From assembly GCA_019057795.1 (NCBI GenBank), contig JAHLWS010000062.1:1-64000 (forward strand): a DNA stretch of 64,000 nt. Reading direction: 5' to 3'. Shown here one piece after another: positions 14,523 through 39,952 of the stretch. How positions within the stretch are numbered: position 1 is the first letter of the stretch; every line of letters begins with the position of its first letter. The notes beneath the pieces are model-generated. The model worked only from the letters and a program-made list of their open reading frames with translations. It had not been told where the DNA came from and made no database searches. Made by a program: the position numbers and the translations under genes. The DNA is from Promethearchaeota archaeon. GTDB lineage: Archaea > Asgardarchaeota > Lokiarchaeia > Sigyniarchaeales > SOKP01.

Positions 14523-15035
14523 ATGATAGAGGAATTTGATCGTGTCTCTTATATTTTTAGAGATTATTTATATAATTTTGTAAGATTAATGAAAGAGAAG
14601 TATCACGAGGATCTGCTTTCAATTATATTGTTTGGTTCTGTAGCGAGGGGAAAATGGAATAATGAATCCGATATTGACCTTTTTATAATATTTACTAACA
14701 AATCATCGATAAAAAACGGTTTAAATAATCAACTAACGAAAATAATCTCAGATTACGAGAGAAAATCAAAATTAAAAAATTCCAAAGGTGATCGTCTATT
14801 TTCTACTATACAGGATATATCATTGTTATTAAAAGATCTACATACATTTAGAACAATATTTTATGATATTGCGATGGATGGAATCATTATATTTGATAGA
14901 AATAAAACAGGATTTCATTTTCTTAAAAGAATAAGAAAAAGAATCGAAGAAAAAGGACTAAGAAGGGTTTTCATAAAAGAAAATGATTATTATTGGGAAA
15001 GAAATGTTAAGTTTGGAGAAATTATTGAACTATGA
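14523..15035 (+). CDS. Minimal nucleotidyltransferase (MNT)
   Basis: LFGSVARG...SDIDL. Confidence 0.85.
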   Translation: MIEEFDRVSYIFRDYLYNFVRLMKEKYHEDLLSIILFGSVARGKWNNESDIDLFIIFTNKSSIKNGLNNQLTKIISDYERKSKLKNSKGDRLFSTIQDISLLLKDLHTFRTIFYDIAMDGIIIFDRNKTGFHFLKRIRKRIEEKGLRRVFIKENDYYWERNVKFGEIIEL

Positions 15036-15490
15036 ATAATTTAGATACTTCAAAAGGAGCAGTTGAAAGAGCGTTTCGTTGGTATCAAGGTGCTATACGA
15101 GCATATGAAGATGAAAGATGGGATGATGTTATTTATTCCTTACAAATGTCAGTTGAGCAAGCCTTAAAAGCGGTCTTAATTCTTTTTGGGATTGAATATC
15201 CAAAAAAGCATGATGTATCTACAATTTATGTCGATCTAAAGCAAAAATTGATTCCAGAATGGTTCAAAGAAAAAATTGATAATCAAGTAGACATGTTAAA
15301 GGATCTAGTTAAATTAAGAGGTAAAGCGTCATATGGATATGTTGATGGACTAAAAAAAGACGATTTTAAAGATGAAGCATCCAGTTTTAAAGATCCTGTT
15401 AGAGATATAATAGAAGAATGTAATAATCTAATAATTGAATTTTCTAAAAATGAAATTCAAGAAAATAATTCAAATGGTTCTAATAAATGA
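15032..15490 (+). CDS. HEPN domain protein
   Basis: QMSVEQALKA, PKKHDV; ATGA overlap with MNT gene. Confidence 0.8.
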   Translation: MNNLDTSKGAVERAFRWYQGAIRAYEDERWDDVIYSLQMSVEQALKAVLILFGIEYPKKHDVSTIYVDLKQKLIPEWFKEKIDNQVDMLKDLVKLRGKASYGYVDGLKKDDFKDEASSFKDPVRDIIEECNNLIIEFSKNEIQENNSNGSNK

Positions 15491-17129: not shown

Positions 17130-18416
17130 ATGAACGATTTAAGAAAAAAATTGAAAATTCCAGACGGCGCATTAAAAGTAATAAACGATTTCTTACTGGA
17201 CGAAAAAAATCCACTGATAAACGATCTCTTAACTATCATAGATAAATATGGCGGAGTAGAAGAAATTAATAAAAAAGCAGAAGAAGCGAGTAAAATAGAA
17301 AACTTACTCGAAAAGTTAAAAAAGAAGAAACCAGAATATGTTAAGGATATTGAGTGGTTAATTTCTCAACGCGACAATAACTCTTTTATTAGCATAGCAG
17401 ATTATAGAAAAAAGATTTTAGGCGAAAAAGCATCTGAAATGACTTTCGACGAAGACTTTGCGATAACATTAGAACTTTCTGCGTGTCAATACTTTCCTTT
17501 CTTGATGGATATGGTAAGAGACGCCGTTGAAAATCAAACGATAGTACCTGGGAGAATAATTCGCGTAAGATACATGAAAGAACAGGAACAAGATGGGGAT
17601 TTACTAGCTATGGCAGCGGCAATGCAAATAATAGGTGCAACATGGGTTGAGACTCTTGATACAAAGGGAACTGCCCCTGGTCCAGATGGCATGCCTGTAA
17701 ACATACATCTGGGAGGCCCTGATACAATTACTGGATATTTTGGAGGTGTTGGACAACCAAACGATTTTGCGTTAAAATGGATTGACGAATTTCTTTACTA
17801 TTACACTAACTACGGCATTAAACAGGTTCTTAACGTAAATCCGGGCACTGTTTTATTAGGATATTTTATCCATAAACTTGGTATCAACAACGAATTTAAA
17901 ATTAGCGTATACATGGGTAACGATAACCCTTATTCTTGTCTTTGGACATTATTGACCGCTAAATTGTTTGCCCGGGAGGATGGAACTAGTCCCTTGATTG
18001 GCTTTAACCTTGCCAATTCAGTTAATAATGAAACTATTGAAGTAACTGCCTATATTAGAAAAAAATTTGGGTTTGAAGATGTAGTACGAATAGAACACCA
18101 TATAACTGAAACATGGAAAAGTATTGTAAGGCAGCCTTATGACCGTCGAGATGAATTAATGGAATTGGCTAAGAAAGTGAAGAATGTAAGTGCGAAGCAT
18201 GAGGGTGCAAATGTTGATGTTGACGAAAAACGGGAACATCCCACAGATATCCTTGAATATTTCATGACTAAGGAAGATATTGAAGAAGCGGGAATATGGG
18301 AAGCATTACGCATAAACCTTCTCGACCGATACGAAGCTATTAATACTACAGCTGAAGCTCTAACTAAAAAGGGACTAACATTTATAGCTGCTAAAAATTT
18401 ACATCATCGGGAATAA
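17130..18416 (+). CDS. Conserved hypothetical, enzyme-like protein
   Basis: 428-aa ORF with motif-like segments (ETLDTKG, NIHLGG, GYFGG, EHH, KHEG); 19 nt from the next gene. Confidence 0.65.
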   Translation: MNDLRKKLKIPDGALKVINDFLLDEKNPLINDLLTIIDKYGGVEEINKKAEEASKIENLLEKLKKKKPEYVKDIEWLISQRDNNSFISIADYRKKILGEKASEMTFDEDFAITLELSACQYFPFLMDMVRDAVENQTIVPGRIIRVRYMKEQEQDGDLLAMAAAMQIIGATWVETLDTKGTAPGPDGMPVNIHLGGPDTITGYFGGVGQPNDFALKWIDEFLYYYTNYGIKQVLNVNPGTVLLGYFIHKLGINNEFKISVYMGNDNPYSCLWTLLTAKLFAREDGTSPLIGFNLANSVNNETIEVTAYIRKKFGFEDVVRIEHHITETWKSIVRQPYDRRDELMELAKKVKNVSAKHEGANVDVDEKREHPTDILEYFMTKEDIEEAGIWEALRINLLDRYEAINTTAEALTKKGLTFIAAKNLHHRE

Positions 18417-18435
18417 AAAATAGAGGTTAATTTAA

Positions 18436-19926
18436 ATGGGTAAATTTGATTTTAGACCAACAGGAGTTATGCCAGCATTGGTAACTCCTTTTAACAAAGA
18501 AGATGAATCAATTAACGAAGAAAACCTTAGAAATTTAGTAAACTATCTCATAGATCAAGGAGTTACGGGACTTGTTCCGGTAGGAACGACTGGAGAGTTC
18601 GTTAACATGACTTTTGAAGAACGTTTGAGGGTCATAGAAATAGTCGTCGACGAAACGAATGGTAGAGTTCCTGTGATTGCTGGGACTGGAGAAACGGGAA
18701 CAAAGTTGGTAATTGATGCTACTAAAGCTGCAACGGACATCGGTGCAGACGCAGCTATAATTGTAACGCCCTATTATCTCAAACCTAAGGCAAAAGGGTT
18801 GTACGACCATTATTTTACTATAGCAGAAAAAACCGATATACCCTTGGTGTTGTATAATATTCCCGTCTGTACAGGAGTAGAATTGCCTTGGACTGTTGTA
18901 GAAGATCTAGTTGATATTGATAACTTCGTCGCGATAAAGGATTCTAGCGGTGACTACAAATACTTCTCTGCGTTATTAGAGAAAGTAAGCGATAAAATTT
19001 CCGTTCTAATAGGGTGGGACGAAAACGTATTAGGTGCTTTAGCTGGTGGCGCTGCGGGTTGCATACTTGGTTCTGCTAATGTTATTCCTAAAGTATGGCT
19101 CGAACTTTACGACCATGTAAAAAACAATCGGTTAATTGAAGCACAAACTCTACAAAAGAAAGTGCAAAAGCTAGCTCGAATGCTAATCAATTCTGGAGCT
19201 TTAGGCGCCAAAGAATGCTTGAATTTGATGGGCATTCCAGTAGGCACAACTAGACGCCCGATCATTTTAGGAGACGCTCTTTCATACGAACTACAAGACG
19301 AATTTAGAGTTGAACTTGAAAAGTTAGGATATATCGAAAAGAAAGAAATTAAGTTCGAGATCGATGATAAAGAACTAACGGGTCGTTTTTACGCAGTGGG
19401 TGTTACGCCTGAAAAAATTTCTGATTTCAGCTTAAAAGTCGGAGAATCGCTTGTTGGCAGTAGAGCAGAGTTAGCACATATTGATCTTTTAATAGGAAAT
19501 AAAAAGGGACCCGTAGGTGATGCTTACGCTCGTGCTTTAACTCATCCAGCGAAAGGGCGTGAAGGATTACAGGTAATTCTCGAACCAAACATGCAAGTTA
19601 AACCTGCGACTGTTATGCTCCCTACAGTTAAAATCACTTCGCTTCGCCATGCAAGTTTAACTTATGGACCTGCTCAAGCAGCTGTAGCAAAAGCGGTAAT
19701 GAAATGTGTAGAGGATGGAATTCTTCCTAAAGAGGCCGCAGAGGATATTTTAATAATTGTAAATGTATTTGTACATCCTAGCGCGAGCGCTCGAAAACGC
19801 GTTTTTATTAATAATTATAAAGCTACAAGAAATGCCATTCGAAAGGCAATGGAAGGATTACCAACGGTAGATGACGGTATTCAAAACGCTGAAAATGCAC
19901 GTCATCCCTTCAGGAACGATCCGTAA
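18436..19926 (+). CDS. DapA/NAL-family aldolase fused to formaldehyde-activating enzyme (Fae)
   Basis: N-term GTTGE, PYY, YNIP, IKDSSG; C-term GESLVG, AHIDLLIG, KPATV, GPAQAAVAKAV, HPF. Confidence 0.88.
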   Translation: MGKFDFRPTGVMPALVTPFNKEDESINEENLRNLVNYLIDQGVTGLVPVGTTGEFVNMTFEERLRVIEIVVDETNGRVPVIAGTGETGTKLVIDATKAATDIGADAAIIVTPYYLKPKAKGLYDHYFTIAEKTDIPLVLYNIPVCTGVELPWTVVEDLVDIDNFVAIKDSSGDYKYFSALLEKVSDKISVLIGWDENVLGALAGGAAGCILGSANVIPKVWLELYDHVKNNRLIEAQTLQKKVQKLARMLINSGALGAKECLNLMGIPVGTTRRPIILGDALSYELQDEFRVELEKLGYIEKKEIKFEIDDKELTGRFYAVGVTPEKISDFSLKVGESLVGSRAELAHIDLLIGNKKGPVGDAYARALTHPAKGREGLQVILEPNMQVKPATVMLPTVKITSLRHASLTYGPAQAAVAKAVMKCVEDGILPKEAAEDILIIVNVFVHPSASARKRVFINNYKATRNAIRKAMEGLPTVDDGIQNAENARHPFRNDP

Positions 19927-25754: not shown

Positions 25755-27026
25755 TTATTTATCAAAAATTGAAGTATTCCCAATTTCTTTAAAATTTAAA
25801 ATTTGATCATGGTAATGTTCTTCAAAATGGTTTAAAAAGTATGTTAACCTCTCTTTTAAACTCTGACTGGCCGGTTTTGAAAGAAATAGAGCTAATTTAA
25901 CGTACTCTCCATAGACCGCATGAATATAGAAACCTTTATAATTGATTTCATTCATTGATGTAGTTCCGCCTATTTCTGAAACAAATGAATCCATTGCTGA
26001 TAAGAATCCAGAAACTAATTCTTTATCCATTGGAATCTCCTCGCTGGAATGCGATATCATAGCTAATCCAGAAGCCTTTTCGATAATCAGTAGTGTTCTA
26101 AACAGGTCTTTATATTTTGGCTTTACGCTTACAGCGTGTTCTTCTATAATTAATTTTTCCTTTGGAAAAAGCTCAAACATTACAAAATATTTAGGATTGT
26201 ACGACTCGTTTTCTTTGAAATAATACTCAGAAATTTTAGCTAACTGTGAAGGTGTTCTTATTGGTTCGTGAGGTAATTTCTTGATATATTCATCTCGAAT
26301 TGAAGAATCATGAGTTCTTGATTTTTTACCTTTAATAATTCTTAAGATTTTTTGGTGAATTGGATCAATTACATACATCCACACATTCAAATTTATCATA
26401 TCGCTCTTGAGTCTTTCATAACCGATATTACAAACTCCTCGAGGCGTTGTTACAAAAACCGTCCATATAGCTACTTTTGACGCTTCGTTAATTAGGTAAA
26501 AAGTTTCTTTATAGTTCTCTTCTGTCATTTCTGCTCCTGTTCTTACGAATACGGCCTCAGTTCTCAGAAAAGGTTTTTTCTTAATTAAGTATAAATCTAA
26601 CGAAAAATCTTTGATATCAGCCGTATTGAATACAGAAATTCCATAGTCAGCACAGTAATCAGCAAACGCATCGATAAGTTCTTGTTTAGATATGAAATCA
26701 AACCTTGTTAAATAATCGCTTAATTTTTCATCGCTAATTATAAAATTTCCAATGTATTCAATGGGACTCTTAAATTGTTTTTTAAGCGTTGGGCTTTTTA
26801 GATATTGATTATAAAAATGAATACTAATGTAATCAAGGAGATCTAGTTTTGATAACTGATTTTCTTCTGGAAGTGGAATATTGTGTCTGTTCATAAATCC
26901 GTAAATTTCTTTGAACCGACTTCTAACAATAAGACAATTTAGACATATAATTCCTTTTTTACCTTCGCTATCACTTCTTATAATCTTTAAAAATTCCTCT
27001 GCTTCAGTTAATTTTTCAGAACTCAT
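25755..27026 (-). CDS. Hypothetical protein with C-terminal longin-like domain (paralog 1; TAA 12 codons before the homologous end)
   Basis: LVSGFLSAMDSFVSEI..INYKGFY pattern; collinear with 27115-28419. Confidence 0.7.
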   Translation of the reverse strand: MSSEKLTEAEEFLKIIRSDSEGKKGIICLNCLIVRSRFKEIYGFMNRHNIPLPEENQLSKLDLLDYISIHFYNQYLKSPTLKKQFKSPIEYIGNFIISDEKLSDYLTRFDFISKQELIDAFADYCADYGISVFNTADIKDFSLDLYLIKKKPFLRTEAVFVRTGAEMTEENYKETFYLINEASKVAIWTVFVTTPRGVCNIGYERLKSDMINLNVWMYVIDPIHQKILRIIKGKKSRTHDSSIRDEYIKKLPHEPIRTPSQLAKISEYYFKENESYNPKYFVMFELFPKEKLIIEEHAVSVKPKYKDLFRTLLIIEKASGLAMISHSSEEIPMDKELVSGFLSAMDSFVSEIGGTTSMNEINYKGFYIHAVYGEYVKLALFLSKPASQSLKERLTYFLNHFEEHYHDQILNFKEIGNTSIFDK

Positions 27027-27114
27027 TAGTGATATAATATCTTTTGAGTTTTAAAATATTTTTATAATAAACTAAAAATAGTAGAATTAGTGAATTAGTT
27101 GTCGAAATGTTTTT

Positions 27115-28419
27115 TTAAACGTCTATAATTTCTTTTATTAGATAAATTATTTCACTACTGTCAAATAATTCGGTATTACCTGATAACTTAAATTTTTCAA
27201 TCTCATCTTCGTACCGTTCTTCGAATAATCCTATTAGATGTTTTAATCTCTCCTTTAAACTTTTGTCTGCTGGGATAGACAGAAAACAAGCTAATTTTGT
27301 AGATTTTCCGTAGGCTGCTTGGACATAAAACCCTTTATAATTAATTTCTTCCATTTTTGAGCCGCCAATTTGTGTAACAAAGGAATCCATAGCTGCTAAA
27401 AATCCTGATGCTAAAGCTAGCTCTTTAAAATTATCACTTGCGTAAGAAATAATAGGCGTTCCAGAAGATATTTCCATAATAATCAAATCTCTGAACATTT
27501 CTGCATATTTAGGAGTCTCCTCTTCCTTAAGAAGCAATTTATTATGTTCTAAATCGTTGTAAATATCAAAAAGCCTAAAATCAATCGGATCATATGAGTT
27601 TGACTCATTAAAATAATAGTCTGATAGTTCAAAAACATGAGAAGGCGCTCTCATGGGCGCTCTAGGAAGTTTTCGAATTAATTCTTCTCTCAATTCATCA
27701 TCTTGTTCTTCATTTTTCTTGTTTTTTGTAAGACCATAAATTATCTTCCTTGAGGGGTCGACTACATAGAGTTGACAGTTTAATTTATTCATATCATATA
27801 ATAGTTTACTTAATCCAATTTTAAGAATACCGATAGGTGTAGTCACAAAAACACTTCCATTTGCAACTGAATTGGCTTTCTCAATCAAATTTTTAGTTTC
27901 TAAATAAGTTTTATCGTTGATATCAAAACCAGTCATTGCAAACATCGATTCTGTTCTAAGCGCTGATTTCTTCCTCACTGAATACATATCCATTTTAGGT
28001 GTAATGGAATCAGTTGATGTATTATACACTGTAATTCCTAAATCTGCATATAAATCCGCAAATGTATCAATTAGATCTTGTTTAACTATAAAGTCGAGGT
28101 TAATTAGATATTTAGAAAAAATATTTTCGTTTAATATCGCATATCCTATGTATTCTAGCGGATCTTCGTACTTTTTCTGAATATCGGTAGTATAATACAT
28201 TTTTGTGAGGTGCAAAGCAATCATTTTTATGTATTCAAAACGAGTAATAAAAGATTTATCCGGAAGCGAAATTCCATAATTTCTAATAAAAGTTAATAAA
28301 TCCTCCATTCGACAGTTTATTAAGATATAATTTATGCTGATTAACCCGTATTTGGACTTACTAATTTCTTTTAATCGAGAAATTATAGTTTTTTCTGTAA
28401 ATGAATTATATTCGAACAT
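27115..28419 (-). CDS. Hypothetical protein with C-terminal longin-like domain (paralog 2)
   Basis: LASGFLAAMDSFVTQI..INYKGFY; tandem paralog. Confidence 0.7.
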   Translation of the reverse strand: MFEYNSFTEKTIISRLKEISKSKYGLISINYILINCRMEDLLTFIRNYGISLPDKSFITRFEYIKMIALHLTKMYYTTDIQKKYEDPLEYIGYAILNENIFSKYLINLDFIVKQDLIDTFADLYADLGITVYNTSTDSITPKMDMYSVRKKSALRTESMFAMTGFDINDKTYLETKNLIEKANSVANGSVFVTTPIGILKIGLSKLLYDMNKLNCQLYVVDPSRKIIYGLTKNKKNEEQDDELREELIRKLPRAPMRAPSHVFELSDYYFNESNSYDPIDFRLFDIYNDLEHNKLLLKEEETPKYAEMFRDLIIMEISSGTPIISYASDNFKELALASGFLAAMDSFVTQIGGSKMEEINYKGFYVQAAYGKSTKLACFLSIPADKSLKERLKHLIGLFEERYEDEIEKFKLSGNTELFDSSEIIYLIKEIIDV

Positions 28420-29934: not shown

Positions 29935-31953
29935 TTATTTTCCTCCATTTTCAACGGGAGGTTGTTTTACTGCAAAATTAATTATCGAATTGAGTTGAAT
30001 ATCAGTAAAATGATTTTGAACCATGGCTCCGGAAGGGCATGCGGACACGCAAGTTCCACATCCTTTACAAAGAGCTGAGTTCACAACGGCGATCTTTTTA
30101 AATTCATCAAAATCTATAGCGTTAAATGGGCATAGGGATTGACAAGTTCTACAGCCTGAACATAAGTGATCCAATACAACGGAATAATACGGTTCAATTT
30201 CGACTTCTCCTTGCGCCATTAACGCTGATGCGCTTGAAGCAGCTCCTTTTGCTTGAGCTACCGCGTCAGGGATATCTTTCGGTCCTTGAGCGACTCCTGC
30301 AATAAAAATACCATCGGTTAAAGTATCTACGGGTCTAAGTTTTGGATGAGCTTCCATAAAGAAGCCATCTTCGGATCGCTGAACGCTTAATAAAGAAGAG
30401 ATTTTGTCTGCGTCTGCCATAGCTTCTAACCCAATAGATAAAACAAACAAGTCGACTGTTAATTCGATTGGCGTTTGCATTAAAGTGTCTTCAGCTCTAA
30501 TTACAATATTATGATCTTTATCTTCCCAAACTTCAGCAATTCGTCCTCTAATATAATTTATTCCGTAGTTTTCTGCTGCAGATTCGTAAAACTCTTCGTA
30601 TCCCCTGCCAAACGCTCGTATATCCATGTAAAATATATAGACATCGCTTTCTGGATGTTTTTCTTTGTATTGTCTCGCTTGTTTTGTGGCATACATGCAA
30701 CAAACTCTAGAACAATATTTATTTCCACCTTCTCTAAAGTTTCTACTTCCAACACATTGGAGAAAGGCAATACTGTGCGGGGCTTTGAGATCTGAAGGTC
30801 TAACTGGCTTTCCTAATACAGGTCCGTATGAACTTAATAGCCGTTCCATCTGAAACGCTGTGATAACATTAGGATATCTTCCATATCCATATTGCTTGAG
30901 TGGAGTTGGGTCGTAAGGATCCCATCCTGTAGCAATAATTATAGTGCCTACTTTTACTTTGAGATACTCTGGTTTATCATCGTATCTAATTGCGTCTGGT
31001 TCACACACATCAGGACGTGCGCAAATCCCGCATTGAATACAACTCTCCATGTCAATAGTGTATTCTCCTGGTACTGCTTGTGGAAATGGAATATATATAG
31101 CTTTTCTTGGGGCTAATCCAAGTTCAAATTCATTACCAACTGATACTGGGCAAGGCTCAACGCAGGCACCGCACCCTGTACAAGCTTCTTGATCGACGTA
31201 ATGTGGTTTTTTCATTATGGTAACTTCAAAATTACCAACATAACCGGCGACATCTACAACCTCCGAATAAGTAAGAAGTTCGATATTTTTTTCTCGGGCA
31301 ACATCAACCATCCGTGGAGTGATGATACAAGCCGAACAGTCCATAGTTGGGAAGGTTTTATCAAGCTGGGCCATGTGACCCCCGATAGTCGGAGTTCTTT
31401 CGACAAGATAAACTTTATATCCTTCTTTGGCTAAGTCTATAGCAGAATTCATTCCAGCGATTCCCGCTCCAATAATTAAGCATGAAGGTTCTACACTTAC
31501 TTTTTGAACTTCTAAAGGTAATAACATCCTCGCTTTCGCAACTGCCATTCTGATATGGTCTTGAGCAATTCTATAGGCACCTTCAGAGTCATTCATGTTT
31601 ACCCAAGTAGCGTGTTCACGTATGTTTGCCATTTCAAATAAAAATTGATTCAACCCAGCTTCCTTACAGACCAACCTAAATGTTGGTTCGTGCATTCTAG
31701 GGGAACATGCAGCAACAATTACACGATTGATTAAACCTGCTTCAATATCCTCTTTAATAATATTTTGACCGTTATCTGAACACATAAATTTATATTCGCG
31801 TGCTAACACCACATCGGGAAGACTTAACGCGTAATCTTTAAGTGCGTATACATCAACTACGCCTGCAATATTAATACCGCAATGGCATACATAAACTCCA
31901 ATTTTAGGTCTCGTTTTTCTCGTAACTTTGATTTTCTTTTCACTTTCCGTCAT
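29935..31953 (-). CDS. hdrA: Heterodisulfide reductase subunit A
   Basis: CHCGINI, ACSPRMHE, NIRE, GAGIAG, KTFPTMDCSAC, QCVGSR, CSRVCC, EAHPKLRP, ferredoxin inserts. Confidence 0.95.
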   Translation of the reverse strand: MTESEKKIKVTRKTRPKIGVYVCHCGINIAGVVDVYALKDYALSLPDVVLAREYKFMCSDNGQNIIKEDIEAGLINRVIVAACSPRMHEPTFRLVCKEAGLNQFLFEMANIREHATWVNMNDSEGAYRIAQDHIRMAVAKARMLLPLEVQKVSVEPSCLIIGAGIAGMNSAIDLAKEGYKVYLVERTPTIGGHMAQLDKTFPTMDCSACIITPRMVDVAREKNIELLTYSEVVDVAGYVGNFEVTIMKKPHYVDQEACTGCGACVEPCPVSVGNEFELGLAPRKAIYIPFPQAVPGEYTIDMESCIQCGICARPDVCEPDAIRYDDKPEYLKVKVGTIIIATGWDPYDPTPLKQYGYGRYPNVITAFQMERLLSSYGPVLGKPVRPSDLKAPHSIAFLQCVGSRNFREGGNKYCSRVCCMYATKQARQYKEKHPESDVYIFYMDIRAFGRGYEEFYESAAENYGINYIRGRIAEVWEDKDHNIVIRAEDTLMQTPIELTVDLFVLSIGLEAMADADKISSLLSVQRSEDGFFMEAHPKLRPVDTLTDGIFIAGVAQGPKDIPDAVAQAKGAASSASALMAQGEVEIEPYYSVVLDHLCSGCRTCQSLCPFNAIDFDEFKKIAVVNSALCKGCGTCVSACPSGAMVQNHFTDIQLNSIINFAVKQPPVENGGK

Positions 31954-31965
31954 TTTTCATTCCTC

Positions 31966-32916
31966 CTAAATTAATTGCTCCTTTACCATATCTAAAAAGG
32001 GTTGTATGGAAATAAATGGGCTCACGCCTTTTAAATCGTGGTTCTTTATGAGTCCAAGTCTACTAGGATCCATTCCCATGGCGACGCCTAGCAACTGCGT
32101 AATATAAATTACAGGAATATGGAACTGTTCTCCAATTACATCTTTATAAAAGTCATTGACTTCGAGCTGTCCGAGGTCCAATTGAAGGTGACAGAAGGGA
32201 CAGCAGTTTATTATGATATCTGCGCCAGCTTCCCTCATATTAACCAGTTTTTCGCGCGTAAAATCAGCTGCGACTTCTTTTACGGCTGTTCTGACGGCAC
32301 CACCAGCACCACAGCACATGAACTTTTCCTTATATTCAATACTAGTTGCCCCAGTGAGCTCAACTATCTCGTCAAGGAAGGTGGGATTCTCGTATTCTCC
32401 ATCCCATGGACGCTTATCGCTAGGTTTAACGATGTGGCATCCATAATGCACTGCAACTTTTAAATCCTTAAATTTGTGCTTAATAAAGCCTCTGATGTAT
32501 TCTTTTCCCATATCTAAGTATAAAGCTTGAATGACGTGTTTAGGCTCAAAATTACCTTTATATTCTTTCCCTATTTTAGCAAGGAGTTTGTTTACGTGTT
32601 TTTTTTCTTCCTTGTCATGTTCTAAGTCCCACCAAGCGTCGCGTAGCGTACCGTAACATCCATTACACCCGGTCATGGTACTAACACCCAACTCTTCTGC
32701 TATTGCTATATTACGAGCAGCAATAACGAGCCAAGTAGGAATATGAAAACTCCTAAATACACCCGGGGCGGGACAACACGATGCTCCAGGCATGTCCAAT
32801 AGTTCTGCGCCTAGTTCTTCGAAAACATCGCGTATGCTACGTTCTATCATTGGATATCTATTTGGAATAACGCATCCTAAAAAAAAAGCGTATCTCCACT
32901 TTTTTTGTTCGCTCAC
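31966..32916 (-). CDS. hdrB: Heterodisulfide reductase subunit B
   Basis: Two CCG domains: GC..SCCPAPG..CNGC; HYGCH..CCGAGG..CPFCHLQ. Confidence 0.93.
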   Translation of the reverse strand: MSEQKKWRYAFFLGCVIPNRYPMIERSIRDVFEELGAELLDMPGASCCPAPGVFRSFHIPTWLVIAARNIAIAEELGVSTMTGCNGCYGTLRDAWWDLEHDKEEKKHVNKLLAKIGKEYKGNFEPKHVIQALYLDMGKEYIRGFIKHKFKDLKVAVHYGCHIVKPSDKRPWDGEYENPTFLDEIVELTGATSIEYKEKFMCCGAGGAVRTAVKEVAADFTREKLVNMREAGADIIINCCPFCHLQLDLGQLEVNDFYKDVIGEQFHIPVIYITQLLGVAMGMDPSRLGLIKNHDLKGVSPFISIQPFLDMVKEQLI

Positions 32917-32917
32917 T

Positions 32918-33532
32918 TTATTTACCCTCCTTTTCGTTTTCTTCTTTTTCTTCTTCTAGCTTTCTTTTATCCTTTAATTTTTTTGCGTTATCCAGTAAAG
33001 CTCTGAAACCAACTTCTTTCATTAAAGTTTGACATTCTTTCACGGCTTCTGGATAGGAATGAACTGTGGGAGGTAGTGGTGGTAATCCATAAGATTCACG
33101 TAAGTCTCTCCACTTTTTGTTATTTTCACCATTAGCCGGTACACCATGACCTGTTTCATAGAAAATAGTACTAGCTAAACCAAAGTGAGAATCTAAAATA
33201 TAGCCTTCTTCGACAGCAATGTTTCTAAGTTTTATAATCATATCGGTTACAGGTATGTCTCGTGGGCATCGCTCATAGCAGTAATAACAAGTACTACAAA
33301 GCCAGATGTCAATATCACTTAATATCGACTCATCTCCTGTTAACGCGCGCCTGAGAGCAGAACGCGTTCGATATGCTGTGCGCCGCCCAGATGGGCACGA
33401 GCCTGTGCACGTTCCACAATTAATACACGCTCTAAGCTTCTCTAAACCGGCTTCAACAAACTTTTGAGAAATCTTAGAGCTCGTGCCTTTATAAACCTTG
33501 CGCTTGATATATTTTTCTATATTATCGCTCAT
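32918..33532 (-). CDS. hdrC: Heterodisulfide reductase subunit C
   Basis: CINCGTCTGSCPSG, WLCSTCYYCYERCPR. Confidence 0.93.
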   Translation of the reverse strand: MSDNIEKYIKRKVYKGTSSKISQKFVEAGLEKLRACINCGTCTGSCPSGRRTAYRTRSALRRALTGDESILSDIDIWLCSTCYYCYERCPRDIPVTDMIIKLRNIAVEEGYILDSHFGLASTIFYETGHGVPANGENNKKWRDLRESYGLPPLPPTVHSYPEAVKECQTLMKEVGFRALLDNAKKLKDKRKLEEEKEENEKEGK

Positions 33533-38089: not shown

Positions 38090-39952
38090 TCAATAACTTT
38101 TGGTCCAACTAATATCGAGTTCATCCAATTTTATTTTTGAAGGAACACCATTTTTGTCCCAGCCCATCATTTCGTAGTAGATCTTTTTGGCTTCACTAAA
38201 ATTCTCTAAATCGATAGCTGTTTCAGCTAGAGCTCCTGAAGTGTGAGGTTGGAAAAATCTATCCGGTAAACAATCGTCATCACTCGTAAAACCTTCTCTT
38301 AAGTTAAATATTCGGGTCATATTCATTATGCGCTCGCCTACTTTCATCAATTCGAAAGTTGAGGTATTCCAACCAGTAACCGCTCTAACTACTTCTGTTA
38401 GCTCAAATGGATTCCACGGCACAAAATAACACATTACGAGAGCATTACCTAAAGCACACCAATTCATTTGATATATTAAGGCTCGAACCTTTTTTGCGCT
38501 TAAATCATCAAGTCGGAGTGGTGTTAAAATTCCAAATGTATTAAAATTAGCAATCGAGCCTTCATTTGCAATAACTGTATCGTGGAGATTATGCATATGT
38601 TCTGCTCCTGTTGGTGAAATCGTGTATCCCAGTCCCAATCCTTGCTTTAAGCGTGGTTCGTGCATCGGAAGTTCTTGACCCTTCACATGGATGGCGAATT
38701 CTTGCGCTCCGTTTTGAATATGTTCAGCGGCTCTTTTTACGCCTTCAGCCAAAATATTTCCTAAACCTTCTCGCTTAGCAATTTTTTCAATCATTTGAAT
38801 CATGGCTTTGGAATTACCAAACTTTAAAATTATCCCTCCAGTATCGGACTCATTTAATATATTATTTTCAAAGCACTCCATGGCAAAACTAATGCTCATA
38901 CCAGTAGAGATCGTATCAATTGAGTACTTATTACAAAGTTCATTAGCCTTACACACTGCTTTAAGGTCGTAAATTCCACAATTAGAGCCGAAAGCAGCAA
39001 GTGTCTCGTATTCTGGACCACCATATTTTGGATCTACGACCCACGGTTCTTTAATTTGTACGACCTTTTTGCATTTAATTGGACACGCAAAACAAGTTTC
39101 CATTTTTAGATCAATTTCTTCTTTGTTAATTTGTGGGTCTAGAGTCTTAGCACTACCTATTCCTCCTGCTTTAAAATTGCGAGTCGGAAGGTTCCCCATA
39201 GAGGCAAACATTTCCATTATACCTCCACCAGTTCCATGTGAGAAATATTCTTTATAATATTTCAAGTAGTTATTACTAAAAGAATTCCTTAATTCTCTTA
39301 ATTTTTCCTTGTTAGCCACTTTAAGTTTCTTATTACCTCTTACAACTACGGCTTTAAGGTTTTTAGAACCCAGGACGGCTCCCATACCCGTTCGACCCGC
39401 AGCGCTACGAAGATCATTTATCACACAAGCATACCGCACCAAATTCTCGCCTCCTGAGCCAATTTGACTTATATGCACAAGCTTATCGTCTAATTCTATT
39501 TTTATTATTTTTTGAGCTTCACCGGTTGTTTTTCCCCAAATATGGCTAGCGTCTCTTATTTCTACGTTTCCATTTTTTATCCAAATAAAAATTGGGCTTT
39601 TTGCTTTTCCCTCAATGATAATTGCATCGAAACCAGCTTTTTTCAACTCTGGCCCCCAATATCCCCCCACTTCTGCTTCACCAAATCCATTTGTTAAGGG
39701 TGATTTTGCACCAACGCTATTTCTCCCCGCTCCTGCAATAGATACTCCCGTTATAGGACCTGTAGCAAATATTAACTTGTTTTCTGGACCAAGAGGATCT
39801 ATGTTAGGTTTTAATTCTTTTAGAAGGTAATACGCAACAAAACCCTCTCCACCAATATATTTCCTATAGAATATTTCTTCGGGATGTTCAAATTTAATCT
39901 TATCATTTGATAAATTAACTCTTAATATTTTGCCACTATAGCCAAATTCCAT
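38090..39952 (-). CDS. aor: Tungsten-containing aldehyde:ferredoxin oxidoreductase family
   Basis: KSPLT, AGRTGMGAVLGSKNLKA, CFACPIKC, PEYET, DTISTG. Confidence 0.9.
   Translation of the reverse strand: MEFGYSGKILRVNLSNDKIKFEHPEEIFYRKYIGGEGFVAYYLLKELKPNIDPLGPENKLIFATGPITGVSIAGAGRNSVGAKSPLTNGFGEAEVGGYWGPELKKAGFDAIIIEGKAKSPIFIWIKNGNVEIRDASHIWGKTTGEAQKIIKIELDDKLVHISQIGSGGENLVRYACVINDLRSAAGRTGMGAVLGSKNLKAVVVRGNKKLKVANKEKLRELRNSFSNNYLKYYKEYFSHGTGGGIMEMFASMGNLPTRNFKAGGIGSAKTLDPQINKEEIDLKMETCFACPIKCKKVVQIKEPWVVDPKYGGPEYETLAAFGSNCGIYDLKAVCKANELCNKYSIDTISTGMSISFAMECFENNILNESDTGGIILKFGNSKAMIQMIEKIAKREGLGNILAEGVKRAAEHIQNGAQEFAIHVKGQELPMHEPRLKQGLGLGYTISPTGAEHMHNLHDTVIANEGSIANFNTFGILTPLRLDDLSAKKVRALIYQMNWCALGNALVMCYFVPWNPFELTEVVRAVTGWNTSTFELMKVGERIMNMTRIFNLREGFTSDDDCLPDRFFQPHTSGALAETAIDLENFSEAKKIYYEMMGWDKNGVPSKIKLDELDISWTKSY

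Follow-up and report, generated by a model that had tools for sequence, protein, structure and literature searches.

Why should a protein annotated as the lysine-synthesis enzyme DapA end in a formaldehyde-activating enzyme (Fae) domain and follow an orphan protein? The question is raised by positions 17,130–19,926 of the 64,000-nucleotide stretch analyzed here (the window), which begins contig JAHLWS010000062.1 of a Promethearchaeota archaeon (Lokiarchaeia; assembly GCA_019057795.1). Two co-oriented open reading frames (ORFs) of 428 and 496 residues were confirmed at 17130–18416 and 18436–19926. We designate the 428-residue protein U. The 496-residue protein is a fusion of a dihydrodipicolinate synthase (DHDPS)-family aldolase and Fae; its closest relatives, from Promethearchaeota (Lokiarchaeia), are likewise named DapA in the source databases. 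Our analysis indicates that the fusion is almost certainly not DapA. In the reading that we prefer, which is plausible but tentative and somewhat short of even, U would make 4-hydroxy-2-oxobutanoate (HOB), and the fusion would cleave HOB to pyruvate and methylene-tetrahydromethanopterin (methylene-H4MPT).

The locus encodes an orphan barrel protein and an aldolase–Fae fusion

17130–18416, + strand: U, a 428-residue orphan protein with a predicted helical N-terminal region and (β/α)8 barrel (about residues 107–425)
18417–18435, + strand: intergenic gap of 19 nucleotides with an AGAGGT ribosome-binding-like site (from the sequence)
18436–19926, + strand: DHDPS-family aldolase::Fae fusion, 496 residues, database label DapA (ORF, Pfam and NCBIfam matches)
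18457–19266, + strand: class I (Schiff-base) pyruvate-aldolase barrel of the fusion (PF00701 residues 8–277, DHDPS structure alignment, motif survey and tree)
19438–19911, + strand: Fae domain of the fusion, methylene-H4MPT-forming hydro-lyase family (PF08714 residues 335–492, TIGR03126 and PDB 1y5y alignment)
5023–8390, − strand: formylmethanofuran dehydrogenase genes, context only and outside the operon (fwdC and fwdB above cut-off, fwdD-like and fwdF-like)

From the 19-nucleotide spacing, the shared strand and the AGAGGT site in the gap, we infer that U and the fusion form a two-gene operon. A T-rich tract follows the fusion stop codon. A scan of the locus for sigma-70 promoters, a model unsuited to archaea, returned chance-level matches only. 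Pfam analysis assigned fusion residues 8–277 to the DHDPS family (PF00701, E 1e-74) and residues 335–492 to Fae (PF08714, E 5e-57), the latter covering 158 of 159 profile positions. Both domains are present in all 120 best database matches of the fusion; thus, the fusion is not an assembly artefact.

The fusion barrel departs from DapA

Alignment to DHDPS structures and a motif survey revealed that the barrel keeps GTTGE (residues 50–54, including Thr51 and Thr52), Tyr114, Tyr140 and Lys168; the Schiff-base Lys161 and the Thr44/Tyr107/Tyr133 triad of DapA are matched by Lys168, Thr51, Tyr114 and Tyr140, respectively. The initial annotation had picked out GTTGE, the catalytic tyrosine and the Schiff-base lysine together with YNIPVCTG, and the alignment bears it out: within YNIPVCTG, around Tyr140, the position of Escherichia coli Arg138 is occupied by Cys145. 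In E. coli DapA, Arg138 binds aspartate semialdehyde (PMC4977564). Across about 100 fusions, the equivalent residue is Cys, Val, Leu or Thr and never Arg, and the positions of Asp187 and Asn248 of DapA are also altered in the fusion.

Phylogeny and context set the fusion apart as well. In a tree with a small outgroup set and long branches, 28 fusion domains lie on one side of a branch supported at 98/100, and 11 unfused members lie apart, including 2 Arg-bearing DapAs that pair elsewhere in the tree. A separate standalone DapA in the same genome scores 338.6 bits, keeps the arginine and adjoins dapB-like and lysA-like genes. No dap gene was recognized among the recurrent neighbors of the fusion in the fetched fusion loci. 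The fusion scores 233.5 bits against the TIGR00674 DapA cut-off of 206.15, which accounts for its database name, and the best PDB sequence matches of its barrel are DHDPS enzymes. The score, these matches and the shared fold, Thr-Thr motif, Tyr/Tyr/Thr triad and Schiff-base lysine would suit a true DapA of lysine synthesis with an appended Fae domain. However, that reading is most improbable, given the missing arginine, the altered Asp187 and Asn248 positions, the separate clade, the attached Fae domain, the absence of dap-gene context and the real DapA elsewhere in the genome. By sequence criteria, the fusion belongs to the DHDPS superfamily but does not pass the tests that are specific to DapA, as had been suspected from its YNIPVCTG motif.

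The barrel could not be placed in another named family either. The fusion falls below the NCBIfam cut-offs of NanA, KdgD, archaeal KDG aldolase and HpaI-like enzymes (182/281, 157/382, 109/374, 105/390 and 190/397 bits). Against the bifunctional Fae-Hps model (NF009833) it reaches 155 bits for a cut-off of 274, through the Fae part only, the partner domain being PF00701. The genome has its own Fae-Hps (538 bits) and its own PanB, so the fusion fills neither role; the idea that it supplies a missing PanB of CoA synthesis was ruled out on the same ground.

The Fae domain and the C1 pathway of the host

The Fae part of the fusion scores 189.7 bits against the TIGR03126 cut-off of 118.05. His348, in the AHIDL motif, aligns with the histidine of Methylobacterium extorquens Fae (PDB 1y5y, E 8e-31), in agreement with the complete, histidine-bearing domain described at the outset. 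Fae condenses formaldehyde with H4MPT to methylene-H4MPT. The genes mch, mtd, fwdB and fwdC were found in the genome, so methylene-H4MPT should be usable by the host. The claim that the H4MPT pathway is encoded nearby broadly stands: the fwd genes are at 5023–8390, about 9 kb away, and mch and mtd lie on another contig.

Tandem aldolase–Fae fusions occur in the Asgard families f7 (which includes Thorarchaeia), f9 and f21 (loci L091–L095, L105 and L106). In these pairs, copy 1 is without the Fae histidine motif and keeps LEPN/YGP-type motifs, and copy 2 shows the opposite pattern. This arrangement suggests that one Fae site may be built from two subunits.

U and V are homologous barrels that accompany the fusion

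Of the 201 Asgard genomes sampled, 100 carry the fusion, full-length or fragmentary, and it also occurs in Bathyarchaeia; its presence in related genomes, on which the initial annotation had made its reading depend, is thus established. U was found in 103 of these Asgard genomes, and a second protein of 310–340 residues, which we designate V, in 28. In families without U, most of the fetched fusion loci have V immediately upstream of the fusion. U or V is present in 95 of the 100 fusion genomes, and the two never occur together in a sampled Asgard genome; all these counts, transcribed by hand, come from genomes that share ancestry and are in many cases incomplete. U has at least 8000 homologues. 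At several loci of family f12 (L098–L100 and L107), a CitG-like gene and one for an M20 peptidase come after V and the fusion, and in some f12 genomes V and the fusion face a D-serine dehydratase/threonine aldolase-like gene.

U gave no match in Pfam, NCBIfam or the PDB, as a single sequence or as a profile, and a feature search in the Atlas returned unnamed clusters only, with a low recognition score. Its AlphaFold model (pLDDT 93) is a TIM barrel, and V is also predicted to fold as a TIM barrel; profile alignment with hhalign indicates that the two are homologous (88%, E 3e-6). Ten residues of U are near-invariant, in at least 98% of 169 sequences: E115, R142, R147, H193, K257, E322, H324, K356, H357 and E358. 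These polar residues are as expected of an active site, and E322, H324, H357 and E358 could bind a metal.

Fold searches with the models returned generic barrels. The best Z-score for U was 12.2, and Mk0906 (Z 11.5) was tied with other barrels; for V, Mk0906 appeared at Z 14.4. The closest predicted-structure clusters to the U model were U32-like proteins of 312–316 residues (TM 0.74–0.75), and V homologues are named "U32 family peptidase" by NCBI. U and V may resemble the U32 "peptidase"-like barrels (Mk0906; UbiU/UbiV/TrhP), but they have no conserved cysteines for a 4Fe-4S cluster, no Cys being found at the positions conserved at 98% among the 169 U sequences and none being invariant in V, and neither matches PF01136. 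Foldseek placed class II aldolases at the top for both proteins, and for U its list also included the epimerase UxaE, all at weak TM scores of 0.33–0.47 by the query; U superposed on its class II aldolase rows with a TM of about 0.33 and a root-mean-square deviation of about 10 Å.

Two further homologues lie in other surroundings. A 385-residue U homologue (48% identity) is located among phage-like genes at L111:9001-10158, on a contig named as VirSorter output. A V homologue occurs on an Enterobacter plasmid (L117:7910-16873) within what looks like a gene cluster for small-molecule biosynthesis, together with a kinase, an oxidoreductase, an aminotransferase, diiron-type enzymes and a major facilitator superfamily transporter.

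Three partner sets of U point to HOB as a probable common metabolite

Examination of the neighborhoods of U revealed three partner sets: (i) of 80 archaeal U loci, 56 have the fusion within the fetched flanks, almost always as the immediate neighbor of U, and the two genes are divergently oriented in Bathyarchaeia; (ii) a class I/II aminotransferase, a homoserine dehydrogenase (HSDH) and an aldehyde:ferredoxin oxidoreductase (AOR) lie by U in 17 of the remaining 24, a count that includes loci with part of the cassette where the contig ends; and (iii) among 20 bacterial or unassigned loci, which include Bacillota, 12 have a PanB-family gene by U, adjacent to it in ten. The second set also occurs in Thermoplasmatota, where two cassettes have an NAD(P) aldehyde dehydrogenase (ALDH) in place of AOR. 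The cassette HSDH forms a distinct clade, found in 25 of 31 Asgard genomes with U but without the fusion. The U-linked PanB copies pass the PanB cut-offs, represent an extra copy in all four genomes tested, and in 9 of 11 cases form a clade apart from panC/panE-linked copies. In one further fusion-less Asgard genome, the gene immediately upstream of U is an unfused, divergent member of the DHDPS family. Four U loci had none of the three sets and no informative neighbors, and a metagenome scan with a divergent gut homologue returned near-identical loci only. The idea that the 428-residue protein is the functional partner of the fusion gains support from this linkage and from the co-occurrence of the fusion with U or V.

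A separate AOR gene in the window (38090–39952) shares 36% identity with the cassette AOR and is unlinked to U. In lineages that are not related to one another, U or V repeatedly has a 4-hydroxybutyryl-CoA dehydratase-like (HpaB-family) gene in its vicinity (L091, L126, L128 and L192).

The simplest metabolite consistent with each of the three partner sets is HOB. It equals pyruvate plus formaldehyde, which suits an aldolase–Fae fusion; it equals pyruvate plus methylene-folate, which suits a PanB-type enzyme; and it is the 2-oxo acid of homoserine, which suits an aminotransferase with HSDH. HOB, which the initial annotation had given as an example of the substrate, is on this comparative evidence the probable substrate of the fusion. 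That U might itself be the HOB aldolase was considered and set aside, since the fusion and PanB would then be redundant.

When a 2-oxo acid bears a leaving group at C4, elimination of that group can yield 2-oxo-3-butenoate, and addition of water to this product yields HOB. In the proposed pathway, a γ-substituted C4 amino acid, likeliest methionine or homocysteine, would be deaminated to its 2-oxo acid, the weakest step of the proposal, and U would exchange the C4 substituent for water by elimination to 2-oxo-3-butenoate and hydration to HOB. The aldolase domain of the fusion would then bind HOB as a Schiff base on Lys168 and release pyruvate and formaldehyde, and the Fae domain would pass the formaldehyde to H4MPT, the methylene-H4MPT formed entering the Mtd/Mch/Fwd branch. 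In effect, the fusion would be an H4MPT-dependent HOB hydroxymethyltransferase, the counterpart of the U-linked PanB paralogues.

Some neighbors of U point weakly to sulfur amino acids and 2-oxo acids as the source. A methionine γ-lyase above cut-off lies directly upstream of U and PanB in one genome (L218), a PatB C-S lyase closes three of the cassettes, amino-acid dehydrogenase or oxidase genes occur in the U operon at three loci (L217, L219 and L220), and homocysteine methyltransferase or MetE-like genes lie nearby in two. As to U as a stand-in for methionine γ-lyase, which would predict an anti-correlation of the two, no Asgard genome passes the TIGR01328 cut-off, and γ-lyase-like genes occur with and without U. 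Methionine as the source is possible but rather doubtful. We give a similarly low rating to the broader proposal of a natural catabolic route for methionine or another γ-substituted amino acid through HOB, in which U and V would form a lyase/hydratase family with three interchangeable sinks: the aldolase–Fae fusion in H4MPT archaea, PanB paralogues in folate bacteria, and the aminotransferase/HSDH/AOR cassette leading to aspartate.

This genome (G000) itself has a Cys/Met-metabolism pyridoxal-phosphate (PLP) gene, γ-lyase-like and below cut-off, at G000:C65:50112-51311; it was matched in two pieces with one TAG in the match, and its relatives match only from about profile position 100.

Direction of the reaction and alternative readings

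The initial annotation had left the direction open, the aldolase either feeding or drawing from the H4MPT pathway. If the fusion builds HOB from pyruvate and methylene-H4MPT, it could supply homoserine and threonine in place of HSDH. The aldol step is reversible, and HSDH is scarce in the fusion families (2 of 43 genomes in f7, 0 of 19 in f12 and 0 of 3 each in f13, f21 and f27). In the host family, it is missing from 22 of 29 fusion genomes and present in 10 of 12 fusion-less ones. One relative (G040) keeps a ThrH-like gene and ThrC without an HSDH match, and an Armatimonadota locus brings together PanB, U, homoserine kinase and threonine synthase. However, operonic ThrC is also missing from 20 of the 22 HSDH-less fusion genomes, HSDH and ThrC being gained or lost together, as if the entire threonine route had been lost, not supplied from a new entry point. 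This genome, 100% complete by markers with 7.5% contamination, gave no HSDH, ThrB, ThrH or operonic ThrC match in profile searches; the TIGR00191 homoserine kinase profile is of little use in the host family, which uses a ThrH-like gene, and ThrH was therefore searched directly. A 476-residue ThrC-like protein below all cut-offs leaves a loophole here. The genome also encodes two homologues (G000:C46:30438-31451 and C53:50312-51502) of the PF01837 enzyme, which converts aspartate semialdehyde to homocysteine. Further, the fusion co-occurs with HSDH and ThrC in seven genomes, and HOB synthesis would leave no evident role for U.

The ALDH-containing cassettes argue in the same direction. Aldehyde dehydrogenases of the NAD(P) type run oxidatively. 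HSDH and ALDH form the proven homoserine-degrading module of canavanine catabolism (PMC9533460). The replacement of AOR by an oxidative ALDH, with this precedent, makes it most likely that HOB or homoserine passes from U to its partners. The gene content thus favors cleavage feeding the H4MPT branch, which we consider likely given HOB as the substrate; drawing on the branch is disfavored, and HOB synthesis in place of HSDH is accordingly rated as clearly unlikely.

ThrC-like proteins of 476–500 residues are paired with an energy-coupling factor (ECF) S-component in this genome (G000:C74; L168:573-2634) and in Thorarchaeia (L072, L076, L077, L080 and L223), where the pair adjoins U.

Two other readings keep the fold of the barrel and change its substrate or its relation to Fae. 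The fusion may transfer a hydroxymethyl group to or from another 2-oxo acid, with U as an epimerase or dehydratase for that compound; we regard this as unlikely, though of appreciable weight, the candidate pairs being 2-oxobutanoate/4-hydroxy-3-methyl-2-oxobutanoate, hydroxypyruvate/3,4-dihydroxy-2-oxobutanoate and ketoisovalerate/ketopantoate. PanB uses a 3-substituted 2-oxo acid as its native donor, and the copies linked to U score above the PanB cut-offs; a chiral substrate would also explain the need for a partner enzyme, and the class II aldolase and UxaE rows of the fold search point the same way, as do, in single loci, an IlvD-type dehydratase and the methionine γ-lyase, a source of 2-oxobutanoate, by U. 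On the other side, those fold matches are weak, the HSDH cassette best suits an unbranched C4 compound, ketopantoate is covered by the genome's own PanB, and the pyruvate-binding GTTGE motif is unchanged. Alternatively, the two domains may be uncoupled, with the barrel cleaving a larger 4-hydroxy-2-oxo acid (for example 4-hydroxy-2-oxoglutarate or a 2-keto-3-deoxy sugar acid) and Fae detoxifying stray formaldehyde or serving as a scaffold. The mismatch between the DHDPS tetramer and the Fae pentamer would agree with this, and so would the loss of Arg138, which is common among non-DapA members, including unfused Asgard paralogues, and the position of V homologues after sugar-acid dehydratases in two bacteria. 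Uncoupling is nevertheless distinctly improbable: many Asgard families and Bathyarchaeia retain the fusion with an intact Fae histidine, tandem copies hold complementary halves of the Fae motifs, another Fae is already present in the genome, and the substitution by PanB points to C1 transfer.

Several observations weigh against the preferred reading, in which U makes HOB and the fusion cleaves it. HOB is deduced from gene neighbors only; shared ancestry and the incompleteness of many genomes limit the weight of the counts; and the solved structures closest to U and V (best Z-scores of 12–15) are generic barrels that do not indicate a function. The hints at methionine are single loci, and methionine γ-lyase makes 2-oxobutanoate, so it points equally to the 3-methyl homologue of HOB. 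A Bacillota operon (G673; L220:3624-8083) contains a leucine-dehydrogenase-like gene, V, PanB and U; this is the only joint occurrence of U and V seen, and it implies that the two may not be simple isoenzymes. V relatives precede a 4-hydroxy-2-oxovalerate aldolase gene on a Mycobacterium plasmid and follow sugar-acid dehydratases in Thermomicrobium and Streptomyces, so methionine does not fit every family member; these neighbors fit a family acting at C3–C4 of 4-hydroxy-2-oxo acids. As for direction, two relatives (G040 and G198) keep ThrC without an HSDH match, and the Armatimonadota locus and the 476-residue ThrC-like protein mentioned above also count here.

Relation to known systems

The likening of the fusion to Fae-Hps is supported by comparative genomics. 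In both, an aldolase that releases or fixes formaldehyde is joined to a Fae of the same domain family. They differ in that the fusion has an N-terminal class I DHDPS-family barrel, not a C-terminal Hps/OMPDC barrel, and in that its proposed substrate is a 2-oxo acid. With PanB, the fusion would share a net hydroxymethyl transfer between a 2-oxo acid and a pterin carrier, and PanB paralogues replace it beside U; however, PanB is a single-domain enzyme of an unrelated barrel family that uses a folate carrier, and the fusion would work in two steps via formaldehyde. By analogy, then, the fusion resembles Fae-Hps in logic and PanB in net terms and is a member of neither.

Both HOB aldolase and HOB transaminase reactions have been established in engineered strains, and HOB is described there as a non-native compound (PMC8879981, PMC11259041); Pseudomonas putida PanB has partial HOB-aldolase activity (bioRxiv 10.1101/2025.02.17.638773). 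In the synthetic homoserine cycle, RhmA/YfaU, GarL and partly PanB join pyruvate and formaldehyde to HOB, which an aminotransferase links to homoserine (PMC8879981, PMC11259041, bioRxiv 2025.02.17.638773). These are side activities; the fusion would instead be a natural class I enzyme dedicated to the reaction, coupled to H4MPT and probably operating in the cleavage direction. Canavanine catabolism in Pseudomonas canavaninivorans (PMC9533460) matches the U cassette in that a γ-substituent is replaced by water and HSDH and ALDH then take homoserine to aspartate, but there a PLP-dependent class I/II enzyme acts on the amino acid, and U is an orphan barrel with no recognized cofactor site. A literature search, which covered few subscription papers, returned nothing on the fusion, on the function of U or V, or on a natural route from methionine to HOB; the pathway around the fusion could be new.

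Half of the Asgard genomes sampled carry the fusion, and its misnaming as DapA skews the picture of lysine synthesis reconstructed for these archaeal relatives of eukaryotes. If the preferred reading is true, the fusion would be one entry of amino-acid carbon into the H4MPT pathway of non-methanogenic Asgard archaea and would link amino-acid fermentation directly to that branch. It would also provide a dedicated HOB aldolase from nature, where designs for synthetic methanol assimilation now depend on side activities. Thousands of "hypothetical proteins" of the U family would gain a testable chemistry, as would PanB paralogues that possibly do not make pantothenate.

Other features of the window

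Three further features lie elsewhere in the window. An hdrA-like/hdrB/hdrC-like cluster occupies 29935–33532. Inspection of the translations by eye suggested a nucleotidyltransferase-like and HEPN-like pair of the MNT-HEPN toxin–antitoxin type at 14523–15490 and, at 25755–28419, two paralogous proteins of 423 and 434 residues with a longin/roadblock-like domain at the end.

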